Below are positions 9,025-53,330 of a stretch of DNA of 64,000 bases, in pieces; position 1 is the stretch's first letter, and each line of letters starts with the position of its first letter. The position numbers were made by a program, and so were the translations under genes. The DNA comes from a virus, in the IMG/VR virus record IMGVR_UViG_3300045988_139474, positions 1 to 64,000 of that record; one strand, written 5' to 3'. The notes below the pieces were generated by a model. The model saw only the letters and a program-made list of their open reading frames with translations. It was not told the DNA's origin and ran no database searches.

Positions 9025-9034
9025 ACGATTTCCT

Positions 9035-9572: not shown

Positions 9573-9584
9573 CAATTTTCGGCC

Positions 9585-11605: not shown

Positions 11606-11950
11606 CTAGTCAATACATTTGCGGAGATAATCAGGCAATACATTCAAAGCAACGTTTTCCAGTTCCTCGCAGATTTCTTGAGCAAATTCGGCCTTGTCGG
11701 AGTATTTGCCCCGATATGCGTCCATGGCTGTACCCAAGTCAAAGATGCCTGTAGCTTCAAAGTAAGCTTCCATGATTTTGCGTTCATCACTTGAGGCTTC
11801 TTCCCATTCTTGAAGCTCATCAAAATACTTCTCAATGCTCAGGCCTTCTGGGTAGTCATCGGCTTCTTCGATACCGCCTGCCTCTTCAATTTCTTCGTAG
11901 TTGCTGAATTCAAACAGGTAGCACCATTCGCCGTTTACTTTGATAGCCAT
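11606..11950 (-). CDS. acidic protein, possible ArdA-like antirestriction protein
   Basis: Start moved to ATG 11950 (MAIKVNGEW; SD AAGGAG). Very acidic. C-terminal AY..A.G......AMDAYRGKYSDKAEFAQEICEEL...LPDYL resembles the ArdA C-terminal region. Confidence 0.45.
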   Translation of the reverse strand: MAIKVNGEWCYLFEFSNYEEIEEAGGIEEADDYPEGLSIEKYFDELQEWEEASSDERKIMEAYFEATGIFDLGTAMDAYRGKYSDKAEFAQEICEELENVALNVLPDYLRKCID

Positions 11951-11989
11951 GTTATTACTCCTTCTTTCGGGTTTAGTTGGTTCATACTT

Positions 11990-12020
11990 GTATATCGCAT
12001 GCGCCAGATTTAATTTTCTA
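11990..12020 (-). promoter_or_regulatory. class I phage promoter motif (variant)
   Basis: GAAAATTAAATCTGGCGCATGCGATATACAAG, directly after terminator 12031..12067. Confidence 0.55.
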
Positions 12021-12030
12021 AAATTTTTAG

Positions 12031-12067
12031 CAAAAATAAAACCTCCCAATCGAAAAGACTGGGAGGC
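12031..12067 (-). terminator. rho-independent terminator
   Basis: CCTCCCA-GTCTTTTCGAT-TGGGAGG followed by TTTTATTTTTG, after 12094..12294. Confidence 0.75.
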
Positions 12068-12093
12068 ATTCACGGTCAAGGTCGGTTGCGGTC

Positions 12094-12294
12094 TTACGCT
12101 TCCTTATCCGATTGATAATTCATCCATGTAACAACTAGTAGCAAGGCAATCATGAAAAGCAATAGCATGATTAGCAAACTTAACTCTAAAGCCGTGGACC
12201 AGGGCACGAAGCCGTTGATATTGGAATACATGTAGATGATACTACTTGTAAGCAACACCGCAGTGATAAAGCCCGATATTCCGCTGAAACTCAT
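12094..12294 (-). CDS. small membrane protein
   Basis: 66 aa with two hydrophobic helices. 4-nt overlap with the upstream gene; terminator directly downstream. Confidence 0.55.
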   Translation of the reverse strand: MSFSGISGFITAVLLTSSIIYMYSNINGFVPWSTALELSLLIMLLLFMIALLLVVTWMNYQSDKEA

Positions 12295-14892: not shown

Positions 14893-15213
14893 TTACTCCC
14901 AACGAATAATATCAATACAGTCTCCGAATACCGTATGATAACACATCTCAACCTCGAAGCCGTCCTCACGTAAGCGGTCAACTACTGCTTGAACGTCAAA
15001 TTGCGTATCTACATTAATGTTTACAAAGATAAGTGAGCCAGTTCGGCGTAACAGGTCGGTATTTGTAACAGCTACTGTAGGCATGTCCAGCCCTGCAGAC
15101 CGCGTAAAGTCTAAACCTTTTGCGCCTAAGCTTGATGCCTCCTTAACAGCTTCGATAATGCCAACATAAACATCTTCTGTTAAGTTAGCTGGGGTCAGAT
15201 TTACTTTGTTCAT
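14893..15213 (-). CDS. family A small protein
   Basis: Start moved to ATG 15213 (MNKVNL; SD AGGAG). ...IIEAVKEASSLGAKGLDF...VVDRLREDGFEVEM...CIDIIRWE. Confidence 0.7.
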   Translation of the reverse strand: MNKVNLTPANLTEDVYVGIIEAVKEASSLGAKGLDFTRSAGLDMPTVAVTNTDLLRRTGSLIFVNINVDTQFDVQAVVDRLREDGFEVEMCYHTVFGDCIDIIRWE

Positions 15214-15249
15214 TTTGTTACTCCTGAAAGGTATTGTTTGGTTATACTT

Positions 15250-15280
15250 GTAAATCTCACTAGCCAATCTTAATTTTTAG
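15250..15280 (-). promoter_or_regulatory. class I phage promoter motif
   Basis: TAAAAATTAAGATTGGCTAGTGAGATTTACAAG, directly after terminator 15282..15316. Confidence 0.6.
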
Positions 15281-15281
15281 C

Positions 15282-15316
15282 AAAAAGAAAACCTCCTAAT
15301 CAAAAGACTAGGAGGC
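15282..15316 (-). terminator. rho-independent terminator
   Basis: CCTCCTA-GTCTTTTGAT-TAGGAGG followed by TTTTCTTTTTG, after 15327..15935. Confidence 0.75.
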
Positions 15317-15326
15317 CGTCTGGGAG

Positions 15327-15935
15327 CTAGTCCTGGTTGCGGGCTGCTTCTTGCGCTAAATGGTCGGCCAATACCTTAGCCAGCGCAGCCGATAAAGACA
15401 AGGAAGAGTTGCTTGCAGGGCATACTGGGCCAACTGTTACTGTCGGCTTTTCCTCAGTCTTTTTCATAGCGGATAACTTGCCGCAGGCTGTAAGCTCTTT
15501 GGTCTTTTCGTTGAAGGTGCACCAAAGCTCCCTGTGCAGAAAATTGCGGTTTTGAATTTCTCGCCAGATTTTCAGGAAGTGTGCATCTTCACTCAAAAGC
15601 TTGATTAGGATTGACTTGTCTTTCTCAAACAGGACATCGCTTATACGGCTTAATGTCTTGATAGTCTGCTCATTCAGCTCAGGTTCAACGGCTTCTTTCG
15701 GCGACAACTCAGGCTTTGAGGGCTGCTTAAGCTCATCTAGCAATTGCTTAGCTATTATGCCGTTGCTCGTCTCAGGGTCAAACAAAAGAGTTGAGGTTTT
15801 GCCTGTTGAATGGTCGATATAGTAGATGGAATCCTCTGTGTAAGATATAATGCTATCAATACAGATGCGCAAATCAGTGGAGGGTAAAATCAAATACGTG
15901 AGGCTATAGGACATAATAAAGGGTGTGTCGGACAT
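15327..15935 (-). CDS. hypothetical protein (family E module plus family D motif)
   Basis: See 12760..13587. N-terminal module LTYLILPSTDLRICIDSIISY. Confidence 0.75.
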   Translation of the reverse strand: MSDTPFIMSYSLTYLILPSTDLRICIDSIISYTEDSIYYIDHSTGKTSTLLFDPETSNGIIAKQLLDELKQPSKPELSPKEAVEPELNEQTIKTLSRISDVLFEKDKSILIKLLSEDAHFLKIWREIQNRNFLHRELWCTFNEKTKELTACGKLSAMKKTEEKPTVTVGPVCPASNSSLSLSAALAKVLADHLAQEAARNQD

Positions 15936-15945
15936 AGATGTCTCC

Positions 15946-16215
15946 TTAATTTACTTTGCTAACAGTTCCTGCTCTGAATTCCTGCAACCATCGTTTGCCC
16001 GCTAAGCAAGATTCCAGCGCATCGCGGATTGCTTGATAATACTCAAGGGCAAGGGTCAAGGTTGTTTCCTCACCGCCTCGAATATAGACAAGGCGCGTAT
16101 GCTCTTCATCCTTGCTAAGGCTTCGTATTGCATACAGGCGCATAGCATATGTTACGCCAGGTGTAAACACAAATAGCAAGTCCTTGCATATTTCAGCCAT
16201 CTTTGTACTTAACAT
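15946..16215 (-). CDS. hypothetical protein, single family E module
   Basis: LLFVFTPGVTYAMRLYAIRSLS...EYYQAIRDALES. Confidence 0.65.
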   Translation of the reverse strand: MLSTKMAEICKDLLFVFTPGVTYAMRLYAIRSLSKDEEHTRLVYIRGGEETTLTLALEYYQAIRDALESCLAGKRWLQEFRAGTVSKVN

Positions 16216-16231
16216 TTCAATTGCCCTATGA

Positions 16232-16849
16232 TTAATTGATCAATTTGTTGCGAAACTCGTCAAAGCCGTCAAACAAGACTTCTTTGATAGCCGTGCAGAC
16301 TTCTTGGCTTAGGCCTTCTGATTCTCGAATCTCAGGGACAATCACGGCAGGCACACCCTTTTCTTGAGAGGCGTTATACATCCAAGCGCAAACGTCCATT
16401 AATTCTTGGTCGACAGGGATATCATCCAAGTACAAGACAATATCGCCTGAGGCCAATTCTTTGCTACGCATCCAGCCAGCTGATTGGGCGAATCGGGTTG
16501 AGCCGTCTCCTGCAGTATTTCGCAAGCCGTCCACAACGTTCAATTCCAGAATGTCTGAGAAAAACGCCTTGTCTTCATCGCTCATATGGCGTCTGCCTAA
16601 GCTTGAGTACCAAGAAGAGATGATTACAACTTCGACATCCTTAATCATTCGGCGGTTCTTGATATCGTCAATCAGCGAATGAAGATTGCTCAAGAGGTCT
16701 CGTGAGATGATGTCGCCACGATTGCGTGAAGCAACTTTGAATTCTTGCTCAATTGCTTTGGTGTCCTTTGCGTCATACAAATCGCAATAGCGGTTGAACG
16801 CCTTGCGATTATTTAAGACACCATCAATATCCAGAAATACAACTAACAT
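16232..16849 (-). CDS. HAD-superfamily phosphatase-like protein
   Basis: N-terminal HAD motif I: MLVVFLDIDGVLNN (DxDGV). Confidence 0.75.
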   Translation of the reverse strand: MLVVFLDIDGVLNNRKAFNRYCDLYDAKDTKAIEQEFKVASRNRGDIISRDLLSNLHSLIDDIKNRRMIKDVEVVIISSWYSSLGRRHMSDEDKAFFSDILELNVVDGLRNTAGDGSTRFAQSAGWMRSKELASGDIVLYLDDIPVDQELMDVCAWMYNASQEKGVPAVIVPEIRESEGLSQEVCTAIKEVLFDGFDEFRNKLIN

Positions 16850-29797: not shown

Positions 29798-30481
29798 TTA
29801 CTTAGCTGAAACCGCAGCACCGCATAATACAACACTAGGATTGCCCGAAACTCGATATTTCATCAGATTCCGATACACTGGTGTAATATTAGGCATACTG
29901 TAATGCTCCTTGATAATACCGTTGAACAGGTACTTACCCATTGTATTAGGGATAGCCACACCGTTCTTGATAGTAGCAGGCTTATTACAATCTACCTCAG
30001 CATAAGTGATGACTTTGAGCTCATTGTATTTAGCAGCCAGTTTCTTTGAATAATCCTCTAAGGCCTTCCAACGGCCTGTATTCATCGAATGATTCTGAGG
30101 TACAATGTTAGTCATCAAAAAGGACTCACTAACAGTTGATAACTCAGACGAATTGCTACTAGCAGCCATATGTCCACGGTCATAGCCAGTTCTGGTGTAA
30201 TCTTTCGGTTGAGCTGAATACCAGCCTACACGATAATCGGCGCGGAAATTGTTAGTGCGTGGCGCATGATTCTTCGCTTCATAGCTAGACAGGGATTCAT
30301 AGGTGACTACAGGAATCTTGAGCTTTTTGTTAAAATAGGACACATATTCCTTATTGCACAACTTCACGACATTCAGGTTGTCGGTAATCTTCACATAATT
30401 ATCTGACTCAACGCATAATTCAGCAGCATTAGCAGACAACGCGAACATCAGCATAGTCATCGGTAACAATTTACATTTCAT
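29798..30481 (-). CDS. secreted DNA/RNA non-specific endonuclease (DRGH beta-beta-alpha-Me family)
   Basis: Signal peptide MKCKLLPMTMLMFALSANA; catalytic YDRGHMAAS and downstream NIVPQNHSMNTGRWKALE, as in NucA/EndoG-type nucleases. Confidence 0.85.
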   Translation of the reverse strand: MKCKLLPMTMLMFALSANAAELCVESDNYVKITDNLNVVKLCNKEYVSYFNKKLKIPVVTYESLSSYEAKNHAPRTNNFRADYRVGWYSAQPKDYTRTGYDRGHMAASSNSSELSTVSESFLMTNIVPQNHSMNTGRWKALEDYSKKLAAKYNELKVITYAEVDCNKPATIKNGVAIPNTMGKYLFNGIIKEHYSMPNITPVYRNLMKYRVSGNPSVVLCGAAVSAK

Positions 30482-30519
30482 AGGTCTAACTCCTTTAATT
30501 TGGGTGAAAGGTGCTGTTA

Positions 30520-30552
30520 CTGTAATATCGCAGCACCCAATCTTAATATCTA
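30520..30552 (-). promoter_or_regulatory. class I phage promoter motif (variant)
   Basis: GATATTAAGATTGGGTGCTGCGATATTACAG, upstream of the nuclease gene. Confidence 0.55.
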
Positions 30553-31227
30553 CCAGCGCCAGAGGAAGCTCAGAGGGATTACATTGGGATAGCCCAATTC
30601 ATCTTCACACTTGCACTTAACATACCAAGACAAACACTCGTTGTCGAAGGTAAAGCAAAAGACGGCTTGATAACGGCTGTAGTCAATATCAAACAGGCCT
30701 TTTATCTTCTCCCAAGCTTCTGCTTCGTCATAAGCCTCAGGCAATATCGACTTATCAAACAAGTTGCGATATTTCCACAAGTTGATAGCATTCGGCAGCT
30801 TCAAGTCCTCAGGGCTTGAGTAGATAACCAGCTGGTCGGAAAACTTAGCCAGAATCTGTACTGTCGTCAAATACAATTCCTGCATCTCGACCGACCGCGT
30901 GGAAGCAAAATCGCATAGCTCAATCAACTCCTCAGGAGGAATCCGAATGCCATTGGGCGTTCTACTCAAGAATGTATAAGCATACATGTCATGCTGATTG
31001 TCTCCGTACATCCGCCCATGAATCCGCTTCACGGCCATCTTGGACTTCTTGTGAAGCTTGAACTGCTTGCCGACCAATTCAATCGGGATAAACAGCTTAG
31101 TCTCGCTTTCGGACAATACGCCCCTATTGTTGACTACAATATTGCTGAAGTAGTCGGTGCTATTGTACTGAGTTACCCCTCGACACAAAATCTTGTTTTC
31201 CAGACAACGATAATGGATCAATCCCAT
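30550..31227 (-). CDS. hypothetical protein immediately downstream of the beta-prime gene
   Basis: 225-aa ORF. Its start abuts the beta-prime stop (TAAATG). Confidence 0.7.
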   Translation of the reverse strand: MGLIHYRCLENKILCRGVTQYNSTDYFSNIVVNNRGVLSESETKLFIPIELVGKQFKLHKKSKMAVKRIHGRMYGDNQHDMYAYTFLSRTPNGIRIPPEELIELCDFASTRSVEMQELYLTTVQILAKFSDQLVIYSSPEDLKLPNAINLWKYRNLFDKSILPEAYDEAEAWEKIKGLFDIDYSRYQAVFCFTFDNECLSWYVKCKCEDELGYPNVIPLSFLWRW

Positions 31228-34200
31228 TTATACTTCCTTTCTGTCGCAATCATGAATTAATTTGCCCATCATCAGTTTCTCAACTGGTAGATGTTGATAG
31301 CCGTCTGCATTCTTCACGCTGTTCTCAAGTGCTTGTCTAGCCCAACCAAAGCCTAATCGTTTCAAGATAGACGGATTTTGGGCGATTGAGTCAACAACTG
31401 TCCTGAACTTAGGATTAGGGTCATTAAATCCCCTGCTCCTCAGGAAGCTCTGGCCGTTGCTTAATACAGATACGTCACTCAAGCCCCTGACGATAACCTC
31501 AAGCAAGGTTGTATAGATATCAATGCCTGACTCGTCAAAGATTCTATGCAGTTCCATCAATACCGCTTTGGCTGACTGGTCGTAAGGCAAGTCATTAAAG
31601 CTCGTAGCAGGCTTGGCCTCAGACGAAGCAATATCAAGAAAGCTCGTTGCTTGCGCGCCTGTAGCCTTGATAAAGTCCGCAATTGCATTACCGACAGTGT
31701 ACTCCAAATCAGCCAAAGTCACACTGCCTGATGTATGTTTTCCTCTTAGGCCAGACTGGTTTAGAGGCTCGCCTGTACTAGTGCCAGCCATTACGCCGAT
31801 GCCTGTTCCTAGTCGGTAGAAGTCTTGAGTAGCAGGATTCAATCCACAACATACCGCGCAAAGGCCGTTATCATGTTCGCACATGATAGGACTGCGTACA
31901 ACAACTGTCTTCGGCAAGTCTTTCAGCATGTGCTTATACAAGATTGTACCGCGTTTCAAATCGCCCACAGGCTCGGCCAATACCTTGCCTTCAGCCTTTG
32001 AGGATTCTAGCTCTATACCTTTCTCAGCCTTACAGTCATGCGTTGTGATATTTAAATCCCTGCACAAGTTAACCAATTGACGCTCAAGATAGCCTGAGGC
32101 TGGTACCATGAAGCTGTTCATAGCCAAGCCACGTCTTGCTGGGCCGCAAGTCCGAATGTAGCTCAACACCGGCAATCCCTCGCTCAGGGCTTCTGGAATC
32201 GGCTCTTCCAAACCGCCTTGCATGGATGTTAACAAGCCTTTTGATACAATCATCTGACGGACTTGAACTGGCGTCACCCTAGCTCCTGAGTTAGCCATAG
32301 CAATCATGGAACTGTTCCTGTCTGTTGACTCGAACCAGTCTTTTACGGCCTTATTGATGTTCGTGTCCCAAGCCTTAATCCGTTCATCAAAGCCCATATC
32401 TTTCGGCAAGGCTTTGACTTCATCAATCAAGGCTTGTTGCTTGGCTGACTTCTTGACGTCATCATATGCTAAGGATAAACCAAACTTGGTTGACGTGCGG
32501 AACCAGAGGCGTTGAAGCTTCGTCAGATACTTGTGAGCATCATTACCATACTTGCGACATAACTCCAAGATGTATTTCTTCACGCCTTTCTTGTCTAACA
32601 CTTGAGTCGGTAGAATATCCGTCAATTCCCAATGGACTAATGCGCCCACGTTAGTCTTGAATCGCTGACCGTCAGTCGTCTTAACAATAATCCAGTCATC
32701 AAAAGCCAACAAGCCCTCATCATATCGGGTCAAGGCTTCCTTAGCCAGGCCGATGAATTTGACTTCCTCAGGCTCTTCAGCCAAAGCTCGTGTTAACAAC
32801 CATGAACCGACAATCTGCTCATGACCAGGTGAAGTTGATACCTTATCCCAAGCGGCAGCTGATAGCAAGTTGCGCTCGAATGATACGACCTCTTTCAATT
32901 CTTGGCAAGCCTCATCCGAAATATGGCGGTGAGTACTCATGGTGTCGCCGTCACAGTCTGCATTGAATGGAGCCATAGCAGCTGGCGGCATATGAATCGC
33001 CTTACCTGAAACAGGAATGACTTGAAAGGCCATTACAGAGTACATATGCAAGCTCGGTGCACGGTTCAAGATGATATATTCATCCTTAACAACACCCTCA
33101 ATAGCCTCCATCGTGTCTGGCGCCAATCGTTTGACCTGCGCTTGAGCCTTGCGGAAAGCCTTGATACTGGGTGTACCTTCTTTTCGGTGCTTTTGAGTGA
33201 GCCAATGAATGATATCAGGCTTAAACAACTCAAGCAGCATAGCATAAGGAATCCCCACGCTGTTGATAGGCATATCAGGAGCGGACAGAATGACTGAACG
33301 GCCTGAAAAATCGACCGTCTTGCCTAACAACGCGCCACGCGGTAATGAGCCCTCCTTACCCTTCAACTTCTCAATACGTGGAATCAGTTTGGCGTTACCA
33401 AATTCACCACCTTCGATAAATTGGATGTTAATCATCTTCTGAACGACACAAGAGGTCATCGACTTAACAACCTGAATCTGCTCAGGGGTCAAGCTATCGG
33501 AGGACATCAAAGCAGCCAGTTTACTCGATTCGCGGATAAGCCTTGAGTAAATCAAGTTTGTCTCGTCATAAAAGATTTTCTCATCAGCACGGCGCAACGG
33601 TCTAGCATCTGGAGGTGTCACGACAACGGTTGAGTTGATAAAAGACAGCAGGTTGTAACCAGCCTTCTGATACTTCTCAGACACCCCTGCATAGCTGAAT
33701 CGCAACGTCTCTACGCAATCAATGTTACGCTCCAACAAGTCGTACAGGCCTGAGATACCGCCTTTCAATTCAGGTGAATCGTCAATAATTAAGCAATAGC
33801 GTTTACCGTCTAGGCCGTACAACGCCCCAGCCGTGTTCTCTTCTAGCTCTAAATTCACTTCACCCAAAGATACCGCTTGCAGGGTTTCTGGTGTAACATC
33901 AATCAATTCCGCAAATGTCTTCAAGAACAACGGATTGATATAGTGGCAATTCAGCTCAATATGGCCGTAACGCTTGCTGCGCTCTTCAGCCTTAACATAG
34001 TCCACACCGCATACTTCGCAAGTCAGGATAGTGTCCGACTTCTTCGCTCTCGGATTATGATGACCGCAAGAACATGTATAGTCATGCTCTGGGCCAAAGA
34101 TATTCTCAGCATACAAGCCGTCTGGAATCGGCTTTGGGTGCTTGTAGTTGAAGTTGTACTTACCCATGTTTATCACTTCGCCATGGGACAACTCCCTAAT

Positions 34201-34236
34201 TCTTTCATCGCTGAGCAAAAACATTTTATCCTCCAA
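31228..34236 (-). CDS. compact RNA polymerase beta-prime (RpoC) homologue
   Basis: 1002 aa, colinear with E. coli RpoC: Zn ribbon (ENIFGPEHDYTCSCG...CEVCGV...RYGHIEL), GKTVDFSGRSVI...ELFKP, NRAPSLH...APFNADCDGDTM (Mg site NADFDGD), bridge helix SGYLERQLVNLCRD, trigger loop GVMAGTSTGEPLNQSGLRGKHTSG. Confidence 0.9.
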   Translation of the reverse strand: MEDKMFLLSDERIRELSHGEVINMGKYNFNYKHPKPIPDGLYAENIFGPEHDYTCSCGHHNPRAKKSDTILTCEVCGVDYVKAEERSKRYGHIELNCHYINPLFLKTFAELIDVTPETLQAVSLGEVNLELEENTAGALYGLDGKRYCLIIDDSPELKGGISGLYDLLERNIDCVETLRFSYAGVSEKYQKAGYNLLSFINSTVVVTPPDARPLRRADEKIFYDETNLIYSRLIRESSKLAALMSSDSLTPEQIQVVKSMTSCVVQKMINIQFIEGGEFGNAKLIPRIEKLKGKEGSLPRGALLGKTVDFSGRSVILSAPDMPINSVGIPYAMLLELFKPDIIHWLTQKHRKEGTPSIKAFRKAQAQVKRLAPDTMEAIEGVVKDEYIILNRAPSLHMYSVMAFQVIPVSGKAIHMPPAAMAPFNADCDGDTMSTHRHISDEACQELKEVVSFERNLLSAAAWDKVSTSPGHEQIVGSWLLTRALAEEPEEVKFIGLAKEALTRYDEGLLAFDDWIIVKTTDGQRFKTNVGALVHWELTDILPTQVLDKKGVKKYILELCRKYGNDAHKYLTKLQRLWFRTSTKFGLSLAYDDVKKSAKQQALIDEVKALPKDMGFDERIKAWDTNINKAVKDWFESTDRNSSMIAMANSGARVTPVQVRQMIVSKGLLTSMQGGLEEPIPEALSEGLPVLSYIRTCGPARRGLAMNSFMVPASGYLERQLVNLCRDLNITTHDCKAEKGIELESSKAEGKVLAEPVGDLKRGTILYKHMLKDLPKTVVVRSPIMCEHDNGLCAVCCGLNPATQDFYRLGTGIGVMAGTSTGEPLNQSGLRGKHTSGSVTLADLEYTVGNAIADFIKATGAQATSFLDIASSEAKPATSFNDLPYDQSAKAVLMELHRIFDESGIDIYTTLLEVIVRGLSDVSVLSNGQSFLRSRGFNDPNPKFRTVVDSIAQNPSILKRLGFGWARQALENSVKNADGYQHLPVEKLMMGKLIHDCDRKEV

Positions 34237-34891
34237 TCAAGTATTCAGCACGTTGGGATAGCCGTGTTCTGTATTTGGTAATGTAATTTCGCAATGGTTG
34301 TTCCTCGTCAGGCCTGAACCTGCTCTTCAACACCTCAATGTCCGAAAACTCAGACACTGTCTTACCCTTCAAGTCCATGAGGCTTTCTAGGGCTTCGACA
34401 ATTTCAATTATTGTTTCAGGCAATTCTGCCTTGATATCGTCATAATAGCCTGAATTCAGGATTATGACTGAAATGCAGCCTGTAATAACGTAGGCTTTTG
34501 TCTCTTCACCAATCGCAACTTTGGCGTGCTTCTCTGGCGTGTTGATTAATTCAGTCGAATACTCGACCAGTTCATCAATCAACATCTTCATCTCAATCGA
34601 ACTCCTGATTGCTGAGCTGATTCTGTATGATTCAAGCTGCTCTGATAACAGGTCTTGGCCTGTAAGTAAGGCCTTGTCCTGTATCTTCACGTCCAGTTGG
34701 GTCTGTATTATCTTAGCCTTATTGCAAGCCGTCTGATAGTTATCAAACACCCGATTGAGCAATGTATCCATTTCCCAAAGGTTGTCCGATTTCAAAGCTC
34801 GCATGTAGAAAGCAGGGTTGAAGAACTCGCTCAACTCCTGCCCTCCAATATCAAGGCCGTGTTGCATATGCACAGGGACTTTTGAAGACAT
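34226..34891 (-). CDS. hypothetical protein overlapping the beta-prime start by 11 nt
   Basis: 221-aa ORF, probably translationally coupled to the beta-prime gene. Confidence 0.7.
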   Translation of the reverse strand: MSSKVPVHMQHGLDIGGQELSEFFNPAFYMRALKSDNLWEMDTLLNRVFDNYQTACNKAKIIQTQLDVKIQDKALLTGQDLLSEQLESYRISSAIRSSIEMKMLIDELVEYSTELINTPEKHAKVAIGEETKAYVITGCISVIILNSGYYDDIKAELPETIIEIVEALESLMDLKGKTVSEFSDIEVLKSRFRPDEEQPLRNYITKYRTRLSQRAEYLIGG

Positions 34892-34897: not shown

Positions 34898-35218
34898 TTA
34901 TCCTAACAGGCTATCCAGTACACTCAAGTCAATCTCAGTCTCTGGCTTCTCAGCCTGTTGATTCTGCAAGTCAGTCAGTCGTTTAGACGTGCCTGTTTCC
35001 AAGCACTCCTTGATTTCCTGTCGGGTTGACGCTCCGACCTTAGGAAGTTTGGGAATGTCGTCAACGGTCTTGAAGTCGTGACCCAACTCAAACCAAGTTT
35101 CCAAGCTTTCAGCTGCAGCCTTGAAGCTAGCAGCACGGTGCTCATCGCCTTGCTTGTAATACAACTCACTCAATTCAGCCAAGTGATTCATAACGGCATC
35201 TGCGGTTTTGATATCCAT
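34898..35218 (-). CDS. stand-alone DNA polymerase beta 8-kDa (HhH / dRP-lyase-like) domain protein
   Basis: 106 aa. VMNHLAELSELYYKQGDEHRAASFKAAAESLE...IPKLPKVGASTRQEIKECLETGTSKRLTDL is colinear with human Pol beta residues ~20-90 (LTELANFE...AYRKAASVIAKY...[30 protein letters not shown]). Confidence 0.6.
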   Translation of the reverse strand: MDIKTADAVMNHLAELSELYYKQGDEHRAASFKAAAESLETWFELGHDFKTVDDIPKLPKVGASTRQEIKECLETGTSKRLTDLQNQQAEKPETEIDLSVLDSLLG

Positions 35219-35244
35219 AAAATAACCTCATTTTGCTACAATAG

Positions 35245-35276
35245 ATGATATTTCAGTCACCAACGTTAATTTTTGC
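35245..35276 (-). promoter_or_regulatory. class I phage promoter motif (variant)
   Basis: CAAAAATTAACGTTGGTGACTGAAATATCATC. The TAA stop of the DNA polymerase gene lies inside the motif. Confidence 0.5.
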
Positions 35277-38200
35277 GATATTTCACTTTGAACGTAGCTT
35301 TGGACTGCTGAATCGTTTTGCCCCACTCATACTTCAAGGCTTTACCAACGCCCCAAAGCTCCGACCAACCATAGTCCTGAGGTTCAGAGGTCTCAACCTC
35401 AATACCCTCCAAGTCATAGGTCTTGGATAGCTTCAGACGGCTTAACAGCCCATCAATTGCTATACTAGTGCCTTTGATAGTAACAGTCCTTTCATCCTGT
35501 TCTCTTGGCGTGAAGTCAATGCTGCAAAGGTCTCGACCGTTAGCAGCCAGTTCATAGTCAATTGAAACTGGGATTCCGACCGACTGACGAACACGGTTCA
35601 CCATTACCTCTTCCATACCCTCCAAGTACTCAAAGATTGTATCGACTGATGTTGAATCGTCATAAGCGTCATGGGTGAACGCATACGGCGCGCAATCATA
35701 GCCCTGTTTCTCGCAATACTCAAGGAACTGATACATGCTAGTGCCTGCCACCAAACTACCAAGTGATTGAATAATCTGGTTTTGGGCTTGACGGTATTTA
35801 GCACCGCCTCCTGCATTTACATCAATCGGCACTTTGTTCCCCAGCATAGTCGTAACATAGGCATTCGTGCGGTCAATCTCGGCATGAGCCTTATGAATGA
35901 ACTCCTTAATGCCTGGGAATTGCTTGAAGAACGCGTCAAAGATTGCCTGAGCTTTCTGAACGTCACCGCCTGTATTGTCAAAAGCAAAGGATTCCACACC
36001 CTTTCCATATAGGATTGAAAAACTGCATGCCTTGCTGAATCGCCTTTCTTCGCTGGTGATTTCAGCCTCAGGCTTCTCAAAGATTTTTGAAGCAGCATAT
36101 CGGTGAATGTCCTTACCGTCCAAAAATACCTGAATCAGATTGCGGTCACCTGTTACCCTTGCCAGCACTGTAACCTCAAGCGCAGAGTAGTCAGCATGAA
36201 CCAATACGTGATTAGGCCGTCTAGGAATCATGATGGCTCGCATTGGTGAACCCGCACTAATGCTATGGAATGCAGCTGACCAACGTCCACTGTTTGCGGC
36301 CAAAGAGTTAAACTCAACATTCGTCAGCAAGCTTCCTGTCCGTTTTTCTTCAGCCGTCAAACTTTCATACGGCTTCTTGCGGAGCCAAATATTGTCGCCA
36401 TAGGTAGTGTCTGTTGTATCTACCAAATGTACGCTGCCTCGACCTTGTACACCGTTGATATTGGCTGAGATGACTTTCAAGATTTTCTTGAGTAGAAACA
36501 AGTCAAACAACAGTTTGAACTCTTTTGTCCAAGTCTCAGGCTTGTCGGAATCGACACCCAAGTAGCGTGAGTGAATCTGATACTGATACTTAATGGTATC
36601 AGAAGCATAACGCCCGATATAATTGGGTAATTCCTCAATGGCGGTCTTCAACATGCTACCAATAAAATTAGCCGTCTTGTTCTTGTTGCCTTTGACATAA
36701 GCCGACAAGAAAGACAAAATGTCCTTAATGCTGTTGGACTTCAAGAAGTCATCACTCGGAAACACACTCATGACCTCAGGCAATCTACCCATCAAGTCGC
36801 TAGTCTCCAAGAATAGGTTGAGGATTACACCCAAGCGCAATTCCTCTGTTAAGTAGGTTTTCCAGAAAAAGTCTCTACTTGCCGCAGTATTGCTACCAGG
36901 ATTCCAGAACCTTTTCAGCCACTCAATCTCTTTCTCTGGTGTATCTACCAGCATGACTTTTTCTTTTTGCGTCTTGCCCGTATAGTACACGAAATTGAAT
37001 GGAATCTTTTGCTGCCCATAGGTAGCCCAATCCATAGCCAATTCAGGGCTGAGGTTAGCTTTGCAGGCCTCGATAATGTTGCGCATCAGCGGTACAGCCT
37101 CAGCATACATCTCTTGTTCCAAAGCATTAGCAGCATTCTCATCCCACATGAAGCCATGTAATTCAAACTTAACAGCCATCCACGGTTGACGCAGACAGAA
37201 ATGGTAGCTAGGCATCACCTCAGGATACTCAAGCTGATAGTGGTGAGCCAATACAACAGTGTAAGCAGCGTCAAGCGCGCAATACACACCCAGAATCGTC
37301 TTGGGAGTAGCACCCCAAGCAGAAGGGAAATGACGCAAGGCTTCAACGATTTCAGACGGCTCGAAATTTGCCTCAGCATACTCCAAGAACGCAAGAATGC
37401 CTGCGTTTCCACTCGCTCGCAACGTCTCAATATCGCCAGCATAACAAGCTTCTCGCAAGGCTGCGTTTCGACCGACTTTGCTTACAAACTTCTTGTACTC
37501 AGCCTGAAATTCCTTAACGTCAGCCTCCCAGATTGCAGCACCAAATTTCTTGCGCAGCAGGTCTTTCAGGCTGGAACGCTCAGCATTCACAGAAGCCATG
37601 ACTATCACGTCTTGGAACTTGTAAAACTTCTTAACAATTCGGAAAGCAACAGCAATCTCAAACGTGCAGTTGTATGTGTAAATGCGCTGATAATTGGCGT
37701 CCAAGAACGCCTCAAACGCTTTCAATGCTCGCTCAGACAACCCTTCAAAAGGTACATCATAGTGGTAGCCATAAGCATGATTGATGTCGGCGGAAAAGCT
37801 CAGGCCGATTTCAGTCAGCTTGAATCCCTCACTCATCGGCTCGACCGCGTTTGTCTCAAAGTCCAGCCCCAACTTGCCCTCTTGAGCCGTTAACACTTCC
37901 AACAGCTTCAGGAATTGCTCTTCACCGTCAATCTTGGTTGTCTTGATTTTCACTTGAGACTTGAACTCATGGAGATAATCAATCCGCTGACGATACTCAA
38001 TAGCATCTTCACCCGATTTAACCGTGAAATATGATTTGACGGCAGCAGCTGAGATTTCAGGTATCTCAAGCGTTGGGATAGCCTGAGACACTACCAGCTG
38101 AGACATCATCTTACCCTTACTGATTGACGGGAACAGGCAGTCAACGGCTGTACGACCGACGCAAATGACCTTTGTAATCCCCTGCTCTTTCAAGAAAGCC

Positions 38201-38409
38201 AAGATTTCTTCGCGGTCTTTGTTTGAGATTTCCTCGTTGATAGTCGTGAACTCAATCAGATACGGCAGGAAGCTCAGGGAATTGACTGTTGTGCGCATAA
38301 CGGCAGAGGCCGTCTCGCTAGATGTAAAACAGTCAGTCACTGTAATCGCTTGGTTGTCTAAGTTTGAAATGATGGCTGTCTTTGCTGATCCTAATTCTTT
38401 AATCCACAT
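35266..38409 (-). CDS. family A DNA polymerase with 3'-5' exonuclease domain and an extra ~170-aa N-terminal domain
   Basis: Exo I LGLDFETNAV; motif A HADYSALEVTVLA; motif B RRFSKACSFSILYGKG; motif C FTHDAYD. Confidence 0.9.
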   Translation of the reverse strand: MWIKELGSAKTAIISNLDNQAITVTDCFTSSETASAVMRTTVNSLSFLPYLIEFTTINEEISNKDREEILAFLKEQGITKVICVGRTAVDCLFPSISKGKMMSQLVVSQAIPTLEIPEISAAAVKSYFTVKSGEDAIEYRQRIDYLHEFKSQVKIKTTKIDGEEQFLKLLEVLTAQEGKLGLDFETNAVEPMSEGFKLTEIGLSFSADINHAYGYHYDVPFEGLSERALKAFEAFLDANYQRIYTYNCTFEIAVAFRIVKKFYKFQDVIVMASVNAERSSLKDLLRKKFGAAIWEADVKEFQAEYKKFVSKVGRNAALREACYAGDIETLRASGNAGILAFLEYAEANFEPSEIVEALRHFPSAWGATPKTILGVYCALDAAYTVVLAHHYQLEYPEVMPSYHFCLRQPWMAVKFELHGFMWDENAANALEQEMYAEAVPLMRNIIEACKANLSPELAMDWATYGQQKIPFNFVYYTGKTQKEKVMLVDTPEKEIEWLKRFWNPGSNTAASRDFFWKTYLTEELRLGVILNLFLETSDLMGRLPEVMSVFPSDDFLKSNSIKDILSFLSAYVKGNKNKTANFIGSMLKTAIEELPNYIGRYASDTIKYQYQIHSRYLGVDSDKPETWTKEFKLLFDLFLLKKILKVISANINGVQGRGSVHLVDTTDTTYGDNIWLRKKPYESLTAEEKRTGSLLTNVEFNSLAANSGRWSAAFHSISAGSPMRAIMIPRRPNHVLVHADYSALEVTVLARVTGDRNLIQVFLDGKDIHRYAASKIFEKPEAEITSEERRFSKACSFSILYGKGVESFAFDNTGGDVQKAQAIFDAFFKQFPGIKEFIHKAHAEIDRTNAYVTTMLGNKVPIDVNAGGGAKYRQAQNQIIQSLGSLVAGTSMYQFLEYCEKQGYDCAPYAFTHDAYDDSTSVDTIFEYLEGMEEVMVNRVRQSVGIPVSIDYELAANGRDLCSIDFTPREQDERTVTIKGTSIAIDGLLSRLKLSKTYDLEGIEVETSEPQDYGWSELWGVGKALKYEWGKTIQQSKATFKVKYRKN

Positions 38410-41247: not shown

Positions 41248-42444
41248 TTACACTTTCTTGCGAACCATCTTATCAAACATTGGCGCCAACAACATAGCTT
41301 GAACGCGTGCAGCGTTGTATGGCTTATTAGTCTTAGCCAAGTCAAAGTAGTAGCGTGCAGCATCCTTAACAGAACCGCCGAAAACAGGGGATTTCTGAGC
41401 CAGATAGGTCTTAGCACGCATATTCAGCGCAACGCCGTTAACAATAACGCTCAACAGGTCTTTGGCTGATACTTTCTTGCCTTGCAAGTAGTCACCCAAA
41501 GCTTTCAGGCCGTCTCGATTCGTTGCAGCTTCTTTCAAGGCTTTGCCCTTAGATTGTTTCGATTCAGACAGAACCCATTTGATAGCATCTTCAACGGTGG
41601 AATAACCGCTGATTGCTTTCATGGCTGCTTGAACCTCTTTCTGAGCTGGGCCAATCTTGACGGTGCTTGAAATCAGGCCTTTAATCGGCTTGCCGTTGTT
41701 AGTGTCTTCAGCCTTAACGCCTGAATAGACGTGGGAAGCACTAACAGTATGGATACCTGCTTTCAAGATTTCCTCAACCTTGTCGGAAACCTCAAACCAT
41801 TCTTTCGGCGTTTCATTACCCAACAACTCTTCAACATCCAAGCCTGAGCCTGTTTGTTGCATAGCGCGTTTTGAGTTTGCGCCAATAGTATTGATGGTAG
41901 CGTCACTCGAAGCTCGAACACGCATGCCTGGGCCAGAACCAATCAGGAGATAGGTTGACAAGACGATAGCACCGTCATGGCCGACTTTAGCGTACAATTT
42001 CTTGAGTAAGTCAACCAGTTCATACTCTTTCTCCGTATCAACTTGAAGATTGCCGGTCACGAACATACCCTTGTCCAGATTCAAGTCAATCAGGCTATCC
42101 AGGTTGACGCTTGAGATGTCCTCATCGTCAATCTCTGAGCCTAAGTTCAGCTCAATGCCTGGATAGTCACCAGCACGTGAGTAGAAGTTGCGCGCCAAGT
42201 TCATAGCAGCCTCTTTACTCATGTACATGCGATACTCATAGTACAAGGCTTCAACAGGGTTTCGGGCTTCCTGAGCCAGTTTCTCATAACGCTTGCGCGC
42301 TTGGAGATAACGTTTCTTGCCTTCAGGTGTCGACATGTACTTATTCATCGTGTCAATCATCTCAGGCGAAAACATCTTATCAAAAGAGGCACTCTCACCA
42401 AACTTTGCAGCTTGAGCGATTGCACCCTTTAGTCTTTCAGTCAT
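41248..42444 (-). CDS. hypothetical protein (398 aa) followed by its own strong terminator
   Basis: Long ORF on the coding strand with no recognisable motif. Hairpin plus T-run at 41195..41236. Confidence 0.75.
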   Translation of the reverse strand: MTERLKGAIAQAAKFGESASFDKMFSPEMIDTMNKYMSTPEGKKRYLQARKRYEKLAQEARNPVEALYYEYRMYMSKEAAMNLARNFYSRAGDYPGIELNLGSEIDDEDISSVNLDSLIDLNLDKGMFVTGNLQVDTEKEYELVDLLKKLYAKVGHDGAIVLSTYLLIGSGPGMRVRASSDATINTIGANSKRAMQQTGSGLDVEELLGNETPKEWFEVSDKVEEILKAGIHTVSASHVYSGVKAEDTNNGKPIKGLISSTVKIGPAQKEVQAAMKAISGYSTVEDAIKWVLSESKQSKGKALKEAATNRDGLKALGDYLQGKKVSAKDLLSVIVNGVALNMRAKTYLAQKSPVFGGSVKDAARYYFDLAKTNKPYNAARVQAMLLAPMFDKMVRKKV

Positions 42445-43734: not shown

Positions 43735-44892
43735 TTATTTGATTGGGCAGAACATGTCTGAGTGTTTAAAGGCTGTCTTCAAGTCAGAATTGACGATATT
43801 GTCTAAGGCTTCAAGCATCAATCCCTCTAACTCGGCCTTATCGCTTTCGGTTGTTGTCTTGGTCCAGATTTTACGAATCATTTCATAAGCAAGAATCGCC
43901 AGATAGTCCTTAACCAAAGAAGAATTTTGGAAGACAGTGCGATTAGTCAAGCCTAAGGCGATTTCCAGCAGCTTGTGAGGGACATGACGGTTGACGTACA
44001 AGAATGAAATTGCATTAGTCATGAACACCCTTACAGCATTGACGAATTCATCAGCTGTTTCAAACGGTGCAAGATAGCCCGTCAGATTATCCAGTCCAGG
44101 ATAAGACAAAGCAACCTTGTTATCCAAGACGGCCTTGAATTGCTTCTCAGCCAAATTATTGCCCTTCTCAACTGCTACTGGGTCGTTAGCCAGATACACG
44201 TGCAGATTGTTTGAGAACAGCGTGTAATTACCAATTCCCTCAGCAAATTCCTCAGGGTGTTTTTGGTGTAAGTACAGAGCAGTCAGTTCCTGCAGGAAGC
44301 TGAACTCAAAGAAGTTGATAGTAAACACACCATAGCTGACGTCATTTGACCGATTGATTACAGTCACATCAAGCTGTTTCGTCTCTTGATTGACGTCAAA
44401 GTACAGCATGTTATTACATGACCTGTCCTTGATATGCGGTGTTCCATGATTGAATTTGATAGCGTCATACGATTCTTGGGCTGGGTCAAAGATACTCAAG
44501 ACGGCTTGACGGGTCTGAGGGTTGGCCTCAAGATACTTGATAACGCCAGCCCATTGATTATGCTGATACAACATTGGGCCATAGGCTCTAGTCCATGTAA
44601 CGCCATCGTCTGAATACAAAGGTGCGCGGTGTAGGAAGTATTCCAACCAGCCTGAAATTACCTTAGAACCCGATAACACCCAAAAGGTCTCTGCAATAGC
44701 AGCAGCGATTGAGTTATTGCGTCCGTCAAGTGTAACATAACGCTCTTTTGGGTTAGTAACGCAGATTGTAGCTCGCTTTACGGCCTTAGTTGTACCCTTC
44801 TCAGATTGAGTTACTGCGCCGTGAGAGTCAATCAATCTCGCAGCTTGGATATACGCGTCATTTACATTCAACGCATTGATTAAGTGTGGCAT
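43735..44892 (-). CDS. thymidylate-synthase-fold enzyme (ThyA or dUMP hydroxymethylase homologue)
   Basis: Start moved to ATG 44892 (MPHLINAL; SD AAAGGA). Colinear with ThyA: RQAVLSIFDP, nucleophile Cys in DRSCNNMLYFDV (ThyA APCHAFFQFYV), INRSNDVSYGVFTINFF (QRSCDVFLGLPFNIAS, Asn kept), NNLHVY (GDTHLY). Confidence 0.8.
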   Translation of the reverse strand: MPHLINALNVNDAYIQAARLIDSHGAVTQSEKGTTKAVKRATICVTNPKERYVTLDGRNNSIAAAIAETFWVLSGSKVISGWLEYFLHRAPLYSDDGVTWTRAYGPMLYQHNQWAGVIKYLEANPQTRQAVLSIFDPAQESYDAIKFNHGTPHIKDRSCNNMLYFDVNQETKQLDVTVINRSNDVSYGVFTINFFEFSFLQELTALYLHQKHPEEFAEGIGNYTLFSNNLHVYLANDPVAVEKGNNLAEKQFKAVLDNKVALSYPGLDNLTGYLAPFETADEFVNAVRVFMTNAISFLYVNRHVPHKLLEIALGLTNRTVFQNSSLVKDYLAILAYEMIRKIWTKTTTESDKAELEGLMLEALDNIVNSDLKTAFKHSDMFCPIK

Positions 44893-44914
44893 GGTTATCC
44901 TTTCTGTTTGCCTG

Positions 44915-44978
44915 TTCATTATACACAAAGAACGATAAGGCCGAAAAACGCATTCACGAAGAAATTATTTTTCGGCCA
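44915..44978 (-). promoter_or_regulatory. class II promoter-like repeat (sigma70-like, perfect TATAAT)
   Basis: Minus strand GAATGCGTTTTTCGGCCTTATCGTTCTTTGTGTATAATGAAC, upstream of the ThyA-fold gene. Overlaps hairpin GGCCGAAAAA..TTTTTCGGCC, which may terminate dcd. Confidence 0.5.
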
Positions 44979-44983: not shown

Positions 44984-45544
44984 CTAGACAGTAGAATCTT
45001 CTGAGAGGACAGCTGCCGATACGGCGTTGTACCCTTGATAGTGTCCGTTGTATCCGTCTGCTTCTAGCAACGGAATATCCAGCTGGTTGAACTTGAGCTG
45101 ACCTATACGCTGGCCAGCCTTCAACACGATAGGATACGGCGCGGAATTATACAATTCAAGAGTGACTGAGCCGTTGAAGCCTGGGTCAATGAAGCCTGCT
45201 AGTTGATGTTCCAACCCGACACGGCCTAATCTTGACTTCAAGCAAAAGTCAGCACATATATCCAGAGGGATTGAAAAGATTTCCGCAGTATGAGCCAGAA
45301 TGAACTGTTGAGGCTGGAGGGTGAATGTTCCTCCCTCCTCAAGCTTAACCCAGTCAAAGTATTCCTCATTGCCTTCCAGCCAGCTTTTCAACGGCTCGGA
45401 TTTACCATTGGGAACCATTAGCTCACAACCAAGAGTTACATCCAAGCTTGCAGGATTGATTAGCTTGCGCAGGTCAAATACATCTCTGTTCTCAACCAGC
45501 CCTTTAGTAATCAACCGCTCGATATTGTAGCGCGACAGAATCAT
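44984..45544 (-). CDS. dcd: dCTP deaminase family protein
   Basis: KSRLGRVGLEHQLAGFIDPGFNGSVTLELYNSAPYPIVLKAGQRIGQLKF parallels E. coli Dcd SSLARLGL...[34 protein letters not shown]. Confidence 0.85.
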   Translation of the reverse strand: MILSRYNIERLITKGLVENRDVFDLRKLINPASLDVTLGCELMVPNGKSEPLKSWLEGNEEYFDWVKLEEGGTFTLQPQQFILAHTAEIFSIPLDICADFCLKSRLGRVGLEHQLAGFIDPGFNGSVTLELYNSAPYPIVLKAGQRIGQLKFNQLDIPLLEADGYNGHYQGYNAVSAAVLSEDSTV

Positions 45545-51857: not shown

Positions 51858-51935
51858 TGGTGGGTGCCGCAGGACTCGAACCTGTCTGCCTACCGTTTAT
51901 GAGACGGCTGCTCATACCTCATGAGCTTGACACCC
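51858..51935 (-). tRNA. tRNA with anticodon CAT (elongator Met or Ile2), CCA encoded
   Basis: Minus strand folds as a cloverleaf: GGGTGTC AA GCTC ATGAGGTAT GAGC A GCCGT CTCATAA ACGGT AGGCAG ACAGG TTCGAGT CCTGC GGCACCC A CCA. 7-bp acceptor, T-loop TTCGAGT. One A-C mismatch in the T stem, and A instead of U at position 8. Confidence 0.8.
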
Positions 51936-52466: not shown

Positions 52467-52669
52467 ATTGACCACTTCTGCTCAAGAACTAAGGCGCACA
52501 GCCCAAGCATACGGTCGGTTGTCGTCTTGAGATAAACAAGTTTTCCGCTAGGATAAGCATACAAGTCACCTGTTTCTTGAATGCTTAACACTGTTGCTTG
52601 AATGCCGTATGAGTCAGACACTACTTGAGTGCCCTCTCGCAGTTCATCAATCCTTAGCATTGCCGTCAT
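52457..52669 (-). CDS. hypothetical small protein
   Basis: Start placed at ATG 52669 (or 52660), overlapping the end of the upstream gene. Its stop lies inside class I promoter 52436..52466. Confidence 0.5.
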   Translation of the reverse strand: MTAMLRIDELREGTQVVSDSYGIQATVLSIQETGDLYAYPSGKLVYLKTTTDRMLGLCALVLEQKWSIKN

Positions 52670-53330
52670 TGTGCTTGTAGAAGGCTTCATAGGCCTTGTA
52701 AACAGAATCAACGGTCACTTCGGATAACCCCTCAGCCAGACGCAAGGCTTGGGCGTTATCTTCAAGGCCGTTCACGAATTTGCGATATGTACCGTCATTG
52801 TAGCCGTTATTCTGGCGGAATCTGTTCAACGCATTCTTGACGACATATCGGGTGTACAACTCATCAAAACCCATTCCGATTCGTTGGCAAAGACGCAAAA
52901 ATTGCTTCACGGTATCGGGGCTTCGATTAATCATGGAATTGATGAACGGTGTAACATTCTTGTCGTATTCAGTATTGAGTTTGAGTGGCTTCTCTTCTAC
53001 ACCGTCAACCACAAATGCGATATGATGTCCCAACGGTCTCACGCGGTCTTCAAAGTCAAATTGCGCGGTCGGTCGGAATAACAACTCAGGCTCAATCAGG
53101 TCAGACAACAAGAAGTGCCAGATATCAACCAGTTCAGTCTTAGCATTCTCAATATCAATCTCCTGTTGCTTCCACCATTTGTAGCCTACTGATTCAAGGT
53201 ATTCACCTGTTTCAGCAATGATTGCATTAGCCCAAGAATTGCCCTTAGCATACCATTCTGCGCCCTGCGTTACAACATTGTTCTCGTGCTGCAATCGTAG
53301 CATCGTCAGCACTTTATTGAGTGTGTTCAT
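52647..53330 (-). CDS. all-alpha NTP pyrophosphohydrolase of the dimeric dUTPase family
   Basis: LQHENNVV...EWYAKGNSWANAIIAETGEYLESVGYKWWKQQ...ELVDIWHFLLS matches the dimeric dUTPase / dCTPase-type helical core. Confidence 0.7.
   Translation of the reverse strand: MNTLNKVLTMLRLQHENNVVTQGAEWYAKGNSWANAIIAETGEYLESVGYKWWKQQEIDIENAKTELVDIWHFLLSDLIEPELLFRPTAQFDFEDRVRPLGHHIAFVVDGVEEKPLKLNTEYDKNVTPFINSMINRSPDTVKQFLRLCQRIGMGFDELYTRYVVKNALNRFRQNNGYNDGTYRKFVNGLEDNAQALRLAEGLSEVTVDSVYKAYEAFYKHNDGNAKD

Follow-up and report, generated by a model that had tools for sequence, protein, structure and literature searches.

The 64,000-nucleotide stretch of the IMG/VR virus record IMGVR_UViG_3300045988_139474 analysed here (the window) carries on its minus strand, at 31228..34224 with the stop codon included, a gene that encodes a large subunit of the β′ type for an RNA polymerase (RNAP) of the two-barrel class, functional and with all catalytic elements in place. 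Phage multisubunit RNAPs are well known, and an intact, selected β′ without a β of known type leaves only two answers, both of them unusual: a chimera or a hidden second barrel. The leading reading, unproven and held here tentatively, with somewhat less than even confidence, is that the phage β′ would pair with the host β and α2 subunits in a hybrid core working on hypermodified phage DNA.

The β′ gene, its catalytic elements and its inteins

In the open reading frame (ORF) list of the 64-kb window the gene appears as an uninterrupted minus-strand frame, 31228..34236, from which a sequence-only reading had taken a 1002-aa product overlapping the upstream 221-aa ORF by 11 nt. Both values are artefacts of an upstream TTG; the real start is the ATG at 34224-34222, the one used by the gene call on the ENA metagenome contig k119_126914 (154,035 bp; its positions 22420-86419, reverse-complemented, make up the window), and the product has 998 aa (ORF, Pfam and tblastn). 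The stop codon TAA of the upstream gene occupies 34226-34228, leaving a 1-nt gap before the β′ ATG, so that the two genes abut. Since the Shine-Dalgarno sequence GGAGGA of β′, read directly at 34229..34234 (minus strand), overlaps the end of the upstream gene, translational coupling of the two is suggested. At the other end the sequence-only reading was right, and the 225-aa ORF starts on the base after the β′ stop.

The assignment to the β′ family is supported by several comparisons. Pfam matches RNA_pol_Rpb1_2 (8e-25), Rpb1_1 (9e-14), Rpb1_5 (6e-13) and Rpb1_4 (2e-5), with Rpb1 domains 1, 2, 4 and 5 colinear and above their gathering thresholds (88.4, 52.0, 49.3 and 24.9 bits versus 25.3, 39.7, 28.5 and 24.8). 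Residues 21-950 of Salmonella RpoC align with the ORF by tblastn (E=3e-81, 28.6% identity), about 150 aa beyond this match align with β′ regions G and H, and the top solved-structure matches are exclusively bacterial β′ chains (7l7b_D, 4e-87).

In a multiple alignment with RpoC and phage homologues, the motif order is colinear with that of RpoC, and all the elements listed in the sequence-only reading are present in that order. On the minus strand the elements run from the N-terminal Zn ribbon CSCGHHNPRAKKSDTILTCEVC (34009..34074; CSCG..CEVC, equivalent to E. coli C70/C72/C85/C88, found by alignment and regular-expression search) through the clamp-helix coiled coil (33424..33558, aligned to Salmonella RpoC 266-306), which has a short insertion at its tip and is the σ-binding element of bacterial β′, to GKTVDFSGRSVI (33289-33324), NRAPSLH (33046-33066) and the Mg-binding loop NADCDGD (32944..32964). 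They are followed by the bridge helix SGYLERQLVNLCRD (32056..32097), the second Zn site with the C-terminal cysteines CEHDNGLCAVC (31849..31881) and a trigger loop without SI3 (31663..31773). The N-arm of the trigger loop is GEPLNQSGLRGKHTSG (31726-31773), and its C-arm is likely GNAIADFIKA (31663-31692), as compared by eye with PRVADLFEAR. Lid and rudder are also present, as in bacterial RpoC, and the Asp triad D-x-D-x-D, the bridge helix and the trigger-loop His (LRGKH) are invariant in our alignment A8. The estimate that the protein is about 400 aa shorter than enterobacterial β′ agrees with the 393 aa of Salmonella RpoC that have no counterpart here, namely SI3 (953-1136), residues 1-21, the last 42 residues (1366-1407), jaw segments, the rim-helix tip and a few short loops.

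The gene is also under strong constraint. Against a diverged same-species allele in IMG/VR (L022, dS 0.61) the β′ dN/dS is 0.055, and that of the DNA polymerase in the same-species comparison is 0.095. Orthologues of 995-999 aa with 46-47% identity and the same gene order occur on two other long contigs (L019 and L020), the same proteins are found on >10 independent contigs of 140-156 kb, and neither near-identical DNA among GenBank phages nor an exact 40-mer match in IMG/VR was found.

Two sites within the catalytic loops are occupied by inteins in other alleles of the species. At the Mg loop, between D423 (32956-32958) and C424 (32953-32955), the alleles P0002, P0003, L021 and L022 read NAD/C..intein..HN/CDGD (slashes mark the boundaries), the insert being either a 409-aa HNH intein or a 148-aa mini-intein (L021:11283-12500; L022 ~11272-11717). 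In the trigger loop, between H830 (31735-31737) and T831 (31732-31734) and hence right after the catalytic His, allele P0001 carries an intein of ~480 aa (GLRGKH/C..intein..SHN/TSGS). The boundaries in these alleles are those of class 1 inteins (NAD/CLTGD...VYVHN/CDGD and GKH/CEFG...IVSHN/TSGS), and Pfam recognises Intein_splicing and HNH domains. The window copy is intein-free and retains the +1 Cys; its loop reads NADCDGD instead of the NADFDGD of the 47%-identical relatives because this Cys is the +1 extein nucleophile of the homing site. The inteins are natural markers of the two catalytic loops of β′, and intein sites in catalytic motifs are typical of indispensable enzymes. Taken together, purifying selection, orthologues and inteins show a working gene that matters to the phage.

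The search for a β subunit and the relatives of the β′ gene

The statement that the 64 kb hold no β was confirmed: the Rpb2 family has no Pfam match among the 85 window ORFs, and RpoB finds no match in the window by tblastn or phmmer --max. For the rest of the genome, where the sequence-only reading had also looked to a search by hidden Markov models, we built a β profile from 72 phage β proteins of IMG/VR loci together with those of YerA41, D69 and Salmonella. Its controls scored 2e-240 to 9e-183, and in the same database it retrieved the untrained AR9 g089 (1e-68) and phiR1-37 g261 (7e-51). Over the part of the species genome that was covered (~6.4-105.5 kb, i.e. ~99 kb or ~64% of 154 kb) and the complete EP_H11 genome (111 kb) its best match had E=0.22, and in the nearly complete 171-kb genome of Ralstonia phage RP13 E=0.15. 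EP_H11, IME392 and ten Rhizobium TM30-group records carry a β′ of this kind; yet when Salmonella RpoB, YerA41 β and D69 β were compared by tblastn with 50,697 phage records, no Escherichia or Rhizobium phage was matched, and none of the 25 Pfam families listed for EP_H11 is a strong β match. A β gene elsewhere in the genome, one of the two options that the sequence-only reading had offered, is therefore disfavoured by the ~99 of 154 kb, by EP_H11 and RP13, and by the tblastn results for IME392 and the ten TM30-group records. No σ-family protein was found by Pfam among the 85 window ORFs, and no α or ω homologues were found here.

Two sets of candidates for a β remnant were considered and rejected. 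The small proteins encoded immediately upstream and downstream of β′ (up221 and dn225, described below) are not β fragments, as hhalign gives a probability of <1% for either against β. A conserved 398-aa protein of the replication module (window 41248-42444) has as its homologue a 483-aa protein of EP_H11 (L016:23475-24926), in which PF04565 Rpb2_3 matches at E=0.089 around 'YETPDGSAMGM'; the window homologue lacks this motif, and a score of that size is expected by chance.

Scanning IMG/VR with the β′ alignment gave 80 loci, and in 74 of them a β frame of ~1000 aa adjoins β′, a few hundred bases away at most. All but two of these 74 have β immediately downstream of a ~900-aa β′ (72 loci), an arrangement assigned here to mReC, the multi-subunit-RNAP-encoding Caudovirales; of the remaining pair, one is an rpoBC of bacterial type and one a β-β′ fusion. 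Among the six loci without β, three are fragments of bacterial rpoC at the ends of contigs, two belong to the window species (L021 and L022, with no β within ±10 kb of β′), and the last is L109, whose β′ is closest to the Rhizobium phage β′. The sequence-only reading was mistaken in describing all known phage multisubunit RNAPs as split and much more diverged, since mReC, YerA41/Carin-5 and the 74 β-bearing loci are comparably bacterial-like, with β adjacent.

The RpoC phylogeny that had been proposed was obtained as a distance-based neighbour-joining (NJ) tree (813 columns, 200 bootstraps, six loci standing for mReC), and it puts the window β′ in a phage-only clade outside the bacteria. The β-less proteins form a clade of their own (90% bootstrap), within which the window protein, L019, L020, RP13 and EP_H11 make up a subclade with 99.5% support; mReC and the bacteria are each recovered at 100%, and the mReC group excludes the window protein. 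The β-less clade comprises this species, L019/L020, RP13, EP_H11/IME392, the Rhizobium TM30 group and L109, and the identity among its β′ members is 29-47%. The window β′ is ~28% identical to every bacterium tested, whereas over the same columns those bacteria are 53-63% identical to Salmonella, which argues that the protein, bacterial in architecture, was not recently acquired from a bacterium and lies outside the bacterial radiation. The description 'clearly bacterial-type' thus applies to its architecture and not to its descent.

In some members of the clade the gene is split. EP_H11 and IME392 (L001) encode β′ in two genes, the C-terminal half before the N-terminal half (L016 26582-28096 and 29676-31244 in EP_H11), and in RP13 (L005) the halves at 10687-12240 and 14956-16416 come as N then C, with five small ORFs between them. 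The β′ genes of this clade are already annotated as such in GenBank, where IME392 labels one β′ half 'beta subunit' and YerA41 labels both halves so. No functional study of the RP13, EP_H11, IME392 or TM30-group β′ was found in the searched literature, nor was a description of a clade with β′ but no β found in the searchable literature. The phage lineage itself is well represented in IMG/VR, since a 208-aa structural-module protein encoded beyond the window start has 145 relatives there, the best 80 of them at 54-94% identity.

The four-gene unit and its genomic surroundings

The β′ gene sits after a block of helicase, primase and family A polymerase genes, and we infer from the gene anatomy that HHH_8, up221, β′ and dn225 are expressed as one unit. 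The first gene encodes a 106-aa helix-hairpin-helix protein of the HHH_8 family (34898..35218, minus strand; PF14716 2.4e-9; dN/dS 0.13). It is followed by the ORF of up221 (34226..34891, minus strand; dN/dS 0.049), a 221-aa orphan predicted to be all-helical and encoded immediately upstream of β′. For up221 there is no Pfam match even at E⩽10 and no PHROG, a PDB profile search gave only noise, and a search of 1.84 billion representative proteins returned only up221 itself; the AlphaFold2 (AF2) single-sequence model has a pLDDT of 41.7. ORFs of ~210 aa occupy the syntenic position in L019 and L020, and ORFs weakly related to up221 adjoin the β′ genes of RP13, EP_H11, TM30, Va2 and YerA41.

The last gene of the unit is the ORF of dn225 (30550..31227, minus strand; dN/dS 0.030), whose 225-aa product is an orphan α/β protein. 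Homologues are a syntenic ORF of ~206 aa in L019 (9e-8) and in L020 (2e-6) and, as a weak match, RP13 ORF145, and dn225 falls into only three clusters in 5.8 billion proteins. No Pfam or PHROG match was obtained for it, a PDB profile search gave noise, Foldseek returned nothing at E⩽0.001, and its AF2 pLDDT is 50.3. Upstream of the unit lies the family A DNA polymerase gene (35266..38409, minus strand; Pfam and synteny), and its place next to the β′ cassette, on the upstream side, is conserved in L019, L020 and TM30; it is found ~4 kb upstream in EP_H11 and IME392, and elsewhere on the opposite strand in RP13. Just downstream of the unit is a gene for a DNA/RNA non-specific endonuclease with a hydrophobic N-terminus (29798-30481, minus strand, 1.6e-27), and RP13 has such an endonuclease as well (ORF241).

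A motif of ~40 nt, aAAAATTAagATTGG-N4-TGagATat.a...tAt.aa, stands upstream of many window genes, and the 13-nt core is matched 22 times on the sense (gene) strand and 0 times on the antisense strand. One promoter-like copy precedes the HHH_8/up221/β′/dn225 unit (35235..35277, minus strand; core 35272..35260), and the next follows right after the dn225 stop (30500..30554, minus strand; core 30549..30537), where the unit ends and the Endonuclease_NS gene starts. The 13-mer cores lie on the minus strand at 63444, 60686, 59039, 52463, 52009, 51627, 35272, 30549, 28469, 26349, 25354, 23564, 23496, 20788, 20028, 15276, 10289, 9569, 8030 and 3591. Same-species loci carry the motif and the 47%-identical relatives lack it; the 'class I motif' of the sequence-only reading is probably this one. 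An ordinary σ70 promoter was rejected as an explanation, as no TTGACA-/TATAAT-like pairing at 17±1 bp was seen in the few copies inspected by eye. Within the β′ unit no intrinsic terminator was found, and σ70-type sites occur there at chance level. Because the motif brackets the operon, a link between β′ and the phage promoter motif appears plausible.

The gene content around β′ points to hypermodified thymidine. The window encodes thymidylate synthase-like and dCTP deaminase-like proteins and dUTPases (dUTPase_2) (43735-44928, 44984-45544 and 52647-53330) besides DNA_pol_A, and the same-species flank L025:39-3074, ~10 kb past window position 64000, encodes an amino acid:DNA transferase (ADDT, 2e-16) and a 5-hydroxymethyldeoxyuridine (5-hmdU) DNA kinase (HMUDK_hel, 2e-41, and HMUD2). 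The 'RP13-like' hypermodifiers are described as having a 5-hmdU pathway with a thymidylate synthase-like enzyme, a dCTP/dCMP deaminase, a 5-hmdU DNA kinase and an amino acid:DNA transferase, as well as a YerA41-type family A polymerase (PMC12686479). From the hypermodification genes of window and flank, the phage is to be placed, by gene content, in this thymidine-hypermodifying 'RP13-like' group. Membership was established here by Pfam for this species and EP_H11, and RP13, TM30, IME392 and EP_H11 are reported as thymidine-hypermodifying (PMC12686479); of the phages tabulated in that paper, these four as well as YerA41 and Carin-5 were found here to carry a β′ of this kind.

Several other features of the genome may be recorded. 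The L025 flank also encodes the small subunit of ribonucleotide reductase (RNR), and the RNR large-subunit gene of the source contig has a 477-nt in-frame insertion (L013:1009-1485) that is absent from another isolate (L025); together with a faint Pfam Intein_splicing match, the insertion indicates a putative mini-intein, which would make RNR a second intein-polymorphic gene of the phage. An EcoRI-type adenine methyltransferase is encoded at 53346-54275 (minus strand, 1.7e-124), and a Tad2-like domain (anti-Thoeris; PF11195, 9e-24) in the early region beside the window (L025, within 1-9914). The actin-like ParM/ALP protein at 296-1246 (minus strand, ALP_N 3e-12) is conserved in Vibrio phage Va2 (1e-78), with RP13 ORF17 annotated as ParM/StbA, and suggests a filament for segregation or positioning of phage DNA. 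A 445-aa protein (5360-6697, minus strand) has YadA head, stalk and anchor domains, unusual in the early/middle region of a phage. The window also holds one tRNA-Met (CAT) gene (51858-51935, minus strand), and RP13 has tRNA-Met among its four tRNAs.

Possible partners of the β′ protein and known systems compared

All known two-barrel polymerases, including the single-chain YonO, hold both barrels (PMC5467207). The phage β′ alone would be without the second double-psi barrel, the source of two lysines, and since one barrel cannot form the active centre and no phage protein recognisably provides the other, the most economical reading is that β′ pairs with the host β, together with α2, in a hybrid core. 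The two small co-transcribed proteins could assist this core, perhaps with specificity factors from the phage, and it would start at promoters of the phage class on the hypermodified DNA. Such an enzyme would have exchanged the half of the cleft that touches DNA (clamp, lid, rudder and a downstream channel without the jaw) for a version that fits bulky thymidine adducts, and the link with thymidine hypermodification suggests why a phage might replace just this half. That β′ joins the host core was the second option of the sequence-only reading, and it leads because the searches disfavour a β gene of the phage's own.

A number of observations weigh against the hybrid core. The β-less β′ proteins retain 47-63% of the 278 columns that are invariant in nine bacterial β′ proteins, compared with 50-52% in mReC, whose β co-evolves with its β′; phage β′ proteins with their own β retain 39-52% of the bacterial-invariant residues, and the β-less ones are judged to be no higher. 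Only the N-terminal 200 aa show a slight excess of such residues (59% and 39% versus 44% and 24% in phages with their own β). The ~28% identity holds for every bacterium tested, and the known hosts are Alpha-, Beta- and Gammaproteobacteria. An assembled bacterial core is not known to exchange subunits, so a hybrid would require α2β that is free or has just been made. In the searchable literature no precedent of a phage β′ replacing the host β′ was found; the roles given to up221 and dn225 are guesses (AF2 pLDDT 42 and 50); and ~55 kb of this genome lies outside the β search, a part that by synteny probably consists mostly of structural genes.

The strongest rival is that a phage second-barrel partner exists unrecognised, either in those ~55 kb or as a diverged or replaced protein, and that the RNAP is self-contained like those of mReC, YerA41 and phiKZ. 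We consider this rather unlikely, yet a serious competitor. The other phage β′ lineages examined (mReC-type loci, YerA41/Carin-5 and the D69 group) do have their own β, the β-less β′ proteins show no extra conservation of bacterial-invariant residues, two conserved orphan proteins always go with β′, the 398-aa protein with its EP_H11 homologue is conserved too, and the search covered ~64% of this genome. Yet the profile that finds the AR9 and phiR1-37 β finds none at E<0.1 in EP_H11 or RP13, neither up221 nor dn225 resembles β when profiles are compared, and the Rpb2_3 match of the EP_H11 483-aa protein ('YETPDG') is not kept in the window homologue. It would also be unusual for β to be lost to recognition while β′ stays at 1e-80 to bacteria.

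Two further explanations appear improbable to a similar degree. The β′ homologue could be a decoy or poison that sequesters the host β/α (or σ) and so shuts off host transcription, as no partner β is encoded and the σ-binding clamp helices are kept; such a protein, however, could do without the Asp triad, the bridge helix, the His of the trigger loop and both Zn sites, all of which are kept at 29-47% identity within the clade, and the inteins sit exactly at the catalytic motifs, with ω of 0.055 across the whole length of β′. Alternatively, in a novel minimal enzyme, β′ could need no β-type barrel at all and work as a homodimer or have up221 and dn225 as its sole partners. The conserved cassette with its two small partners would fit this, and two-barrel polymerases are generally thought to derive from a homodimeric ancestor (ancestry discussed in PMC5467207 and PMC7824862), but all characterised two-barrel polymerases, YonO among them, have both barrels (PMC5467207), the protein is colinear with β′ and leaves no room for a second one, and the small proteins show no β-like profile. 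Contaminating bacterial rpoB/rpoC do turn up in phage collections, but a recently captured host rpoC, bacterial contamination or a decaying pseudogene is rejected here as very improbable: the gene shares only ~28% identity with any bacterium, belongs to a phage-only clade and lies within a replication module of the phage that recurs on >10 independent contigs (140-156 kb), and its intact ORF is under purifying selection.

The hybrid core with host β/α2 thus remains the leading candidate. Its broader form is that the whole thymidine-hypermodifying clade, including the cultured E. coli, Ralstonia and Rhizobium phages, dropped its own β and builds a chimera of phage β′ and host β/α that reads bulky modified DNA from phage promoters; this is possible, and we hold it with less confidence. 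If true, a virus-host chimeric core would be a new form of transcription takeover, would determine rifampicin sensitivity and host range in a new way, and would make this the first instance in which a virus replaces one of the catalytic core subunits of a cellular RNAP. If, instead, a second-barrel protein escapes all current profiles, this would have consequences for views on how RNAP arose. As two clade members, EP_H11 and IME392, are phages of E. coli, the question lends itself to direct tests.

Among known systems, the bacterial RpoC shares with the window β′ its domain order, both Zn sites, lid, rudder and clamp helices, Mg loop, bridge helix and trigger loop; the differences are the ~28% identity, the absence of SI3, jaw segments, rim-helix tip and both termini, and the lack of an rpoB alongside. 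To our knowledge, the phiKZ/AR9-type jumbo phages encode no α or ω homologues. Like the window phage they encode a two-barrel RNAP (PMC7598289, PMC7824862), but their β and β′ are each split into at least two polypeptides and far more diverged, β pieces are always included, and the window β′ matches jumbo phages at only 3e-7 (phiR1-37, tblastn) to 3e-9, versus 3e-81 for RpoC. In a jumbo-phage survey, phages outside group 1 and apart from two members of group 3 encode no RNAP (PMC7824862). YonO and the crAss-like enzymes are also phage RNAPs of the two-barrel superfamily without a separate β gene (PMC5467207), but YonO combines the two barrels in a single polypeptide that has no recognisable homology with the trigger loop or with most β′ domains (PMC5467207), whereas the window protein follows β′ colinearly for ~850 aa and contains one barrel only.

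The mReC phages, defined by both β and β′ on contigs that were selected for both (Weinheimer & Aylward 2020, PMC7481178), are tailed phages with an unsplit β′ of ~900-1000 aa and bacterial architecture, outside the cellular lineages, in which NADFDGD, bridge helix and trigger loop are kept. They differ in having a ~1000-aa β directly downstream of β′, where the window has a 225-aa orphan and no detectable β, and they are separate from the β-less clade in the NJ tree. The thymidine-hypermodified Yersinia and Cobetia phages YerA41/Carin-5 share the 5-hmdU-derived hypermodified genome, the family A DNA polymerase, the helicase and a small ORF upstream of β′ (PMC7354516, PMC12686479), at 23-26% β′ identity. 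In YerA41, however, β′ is split N/C and followed contiguously by a 924-aa β, in contrast to the unsplit window β′, for which no β was found; the YerA41 RNAP subunits and σ factor are virion-associated (PMC7354516, PMC12686479). D69 has a β-β′ fusion.

Genuine relatives are RP13, EP_H11, IME392 and the RHph_TM30 group, which have 29-45% β′ identity, no β found and up221-type small ORFs in common with the window phage, RP13 having a dn225-type ORF too. Their gene neighbourhoods range from the same as in the window (TM30) through a looser one (EP_H11) to that of RP13, where the DNA polymerase gene lies elsewhere. RP13 and EP_H11/IME392 encode their β′ in two genes, whereas that of the window phage is a single unsplit chain.

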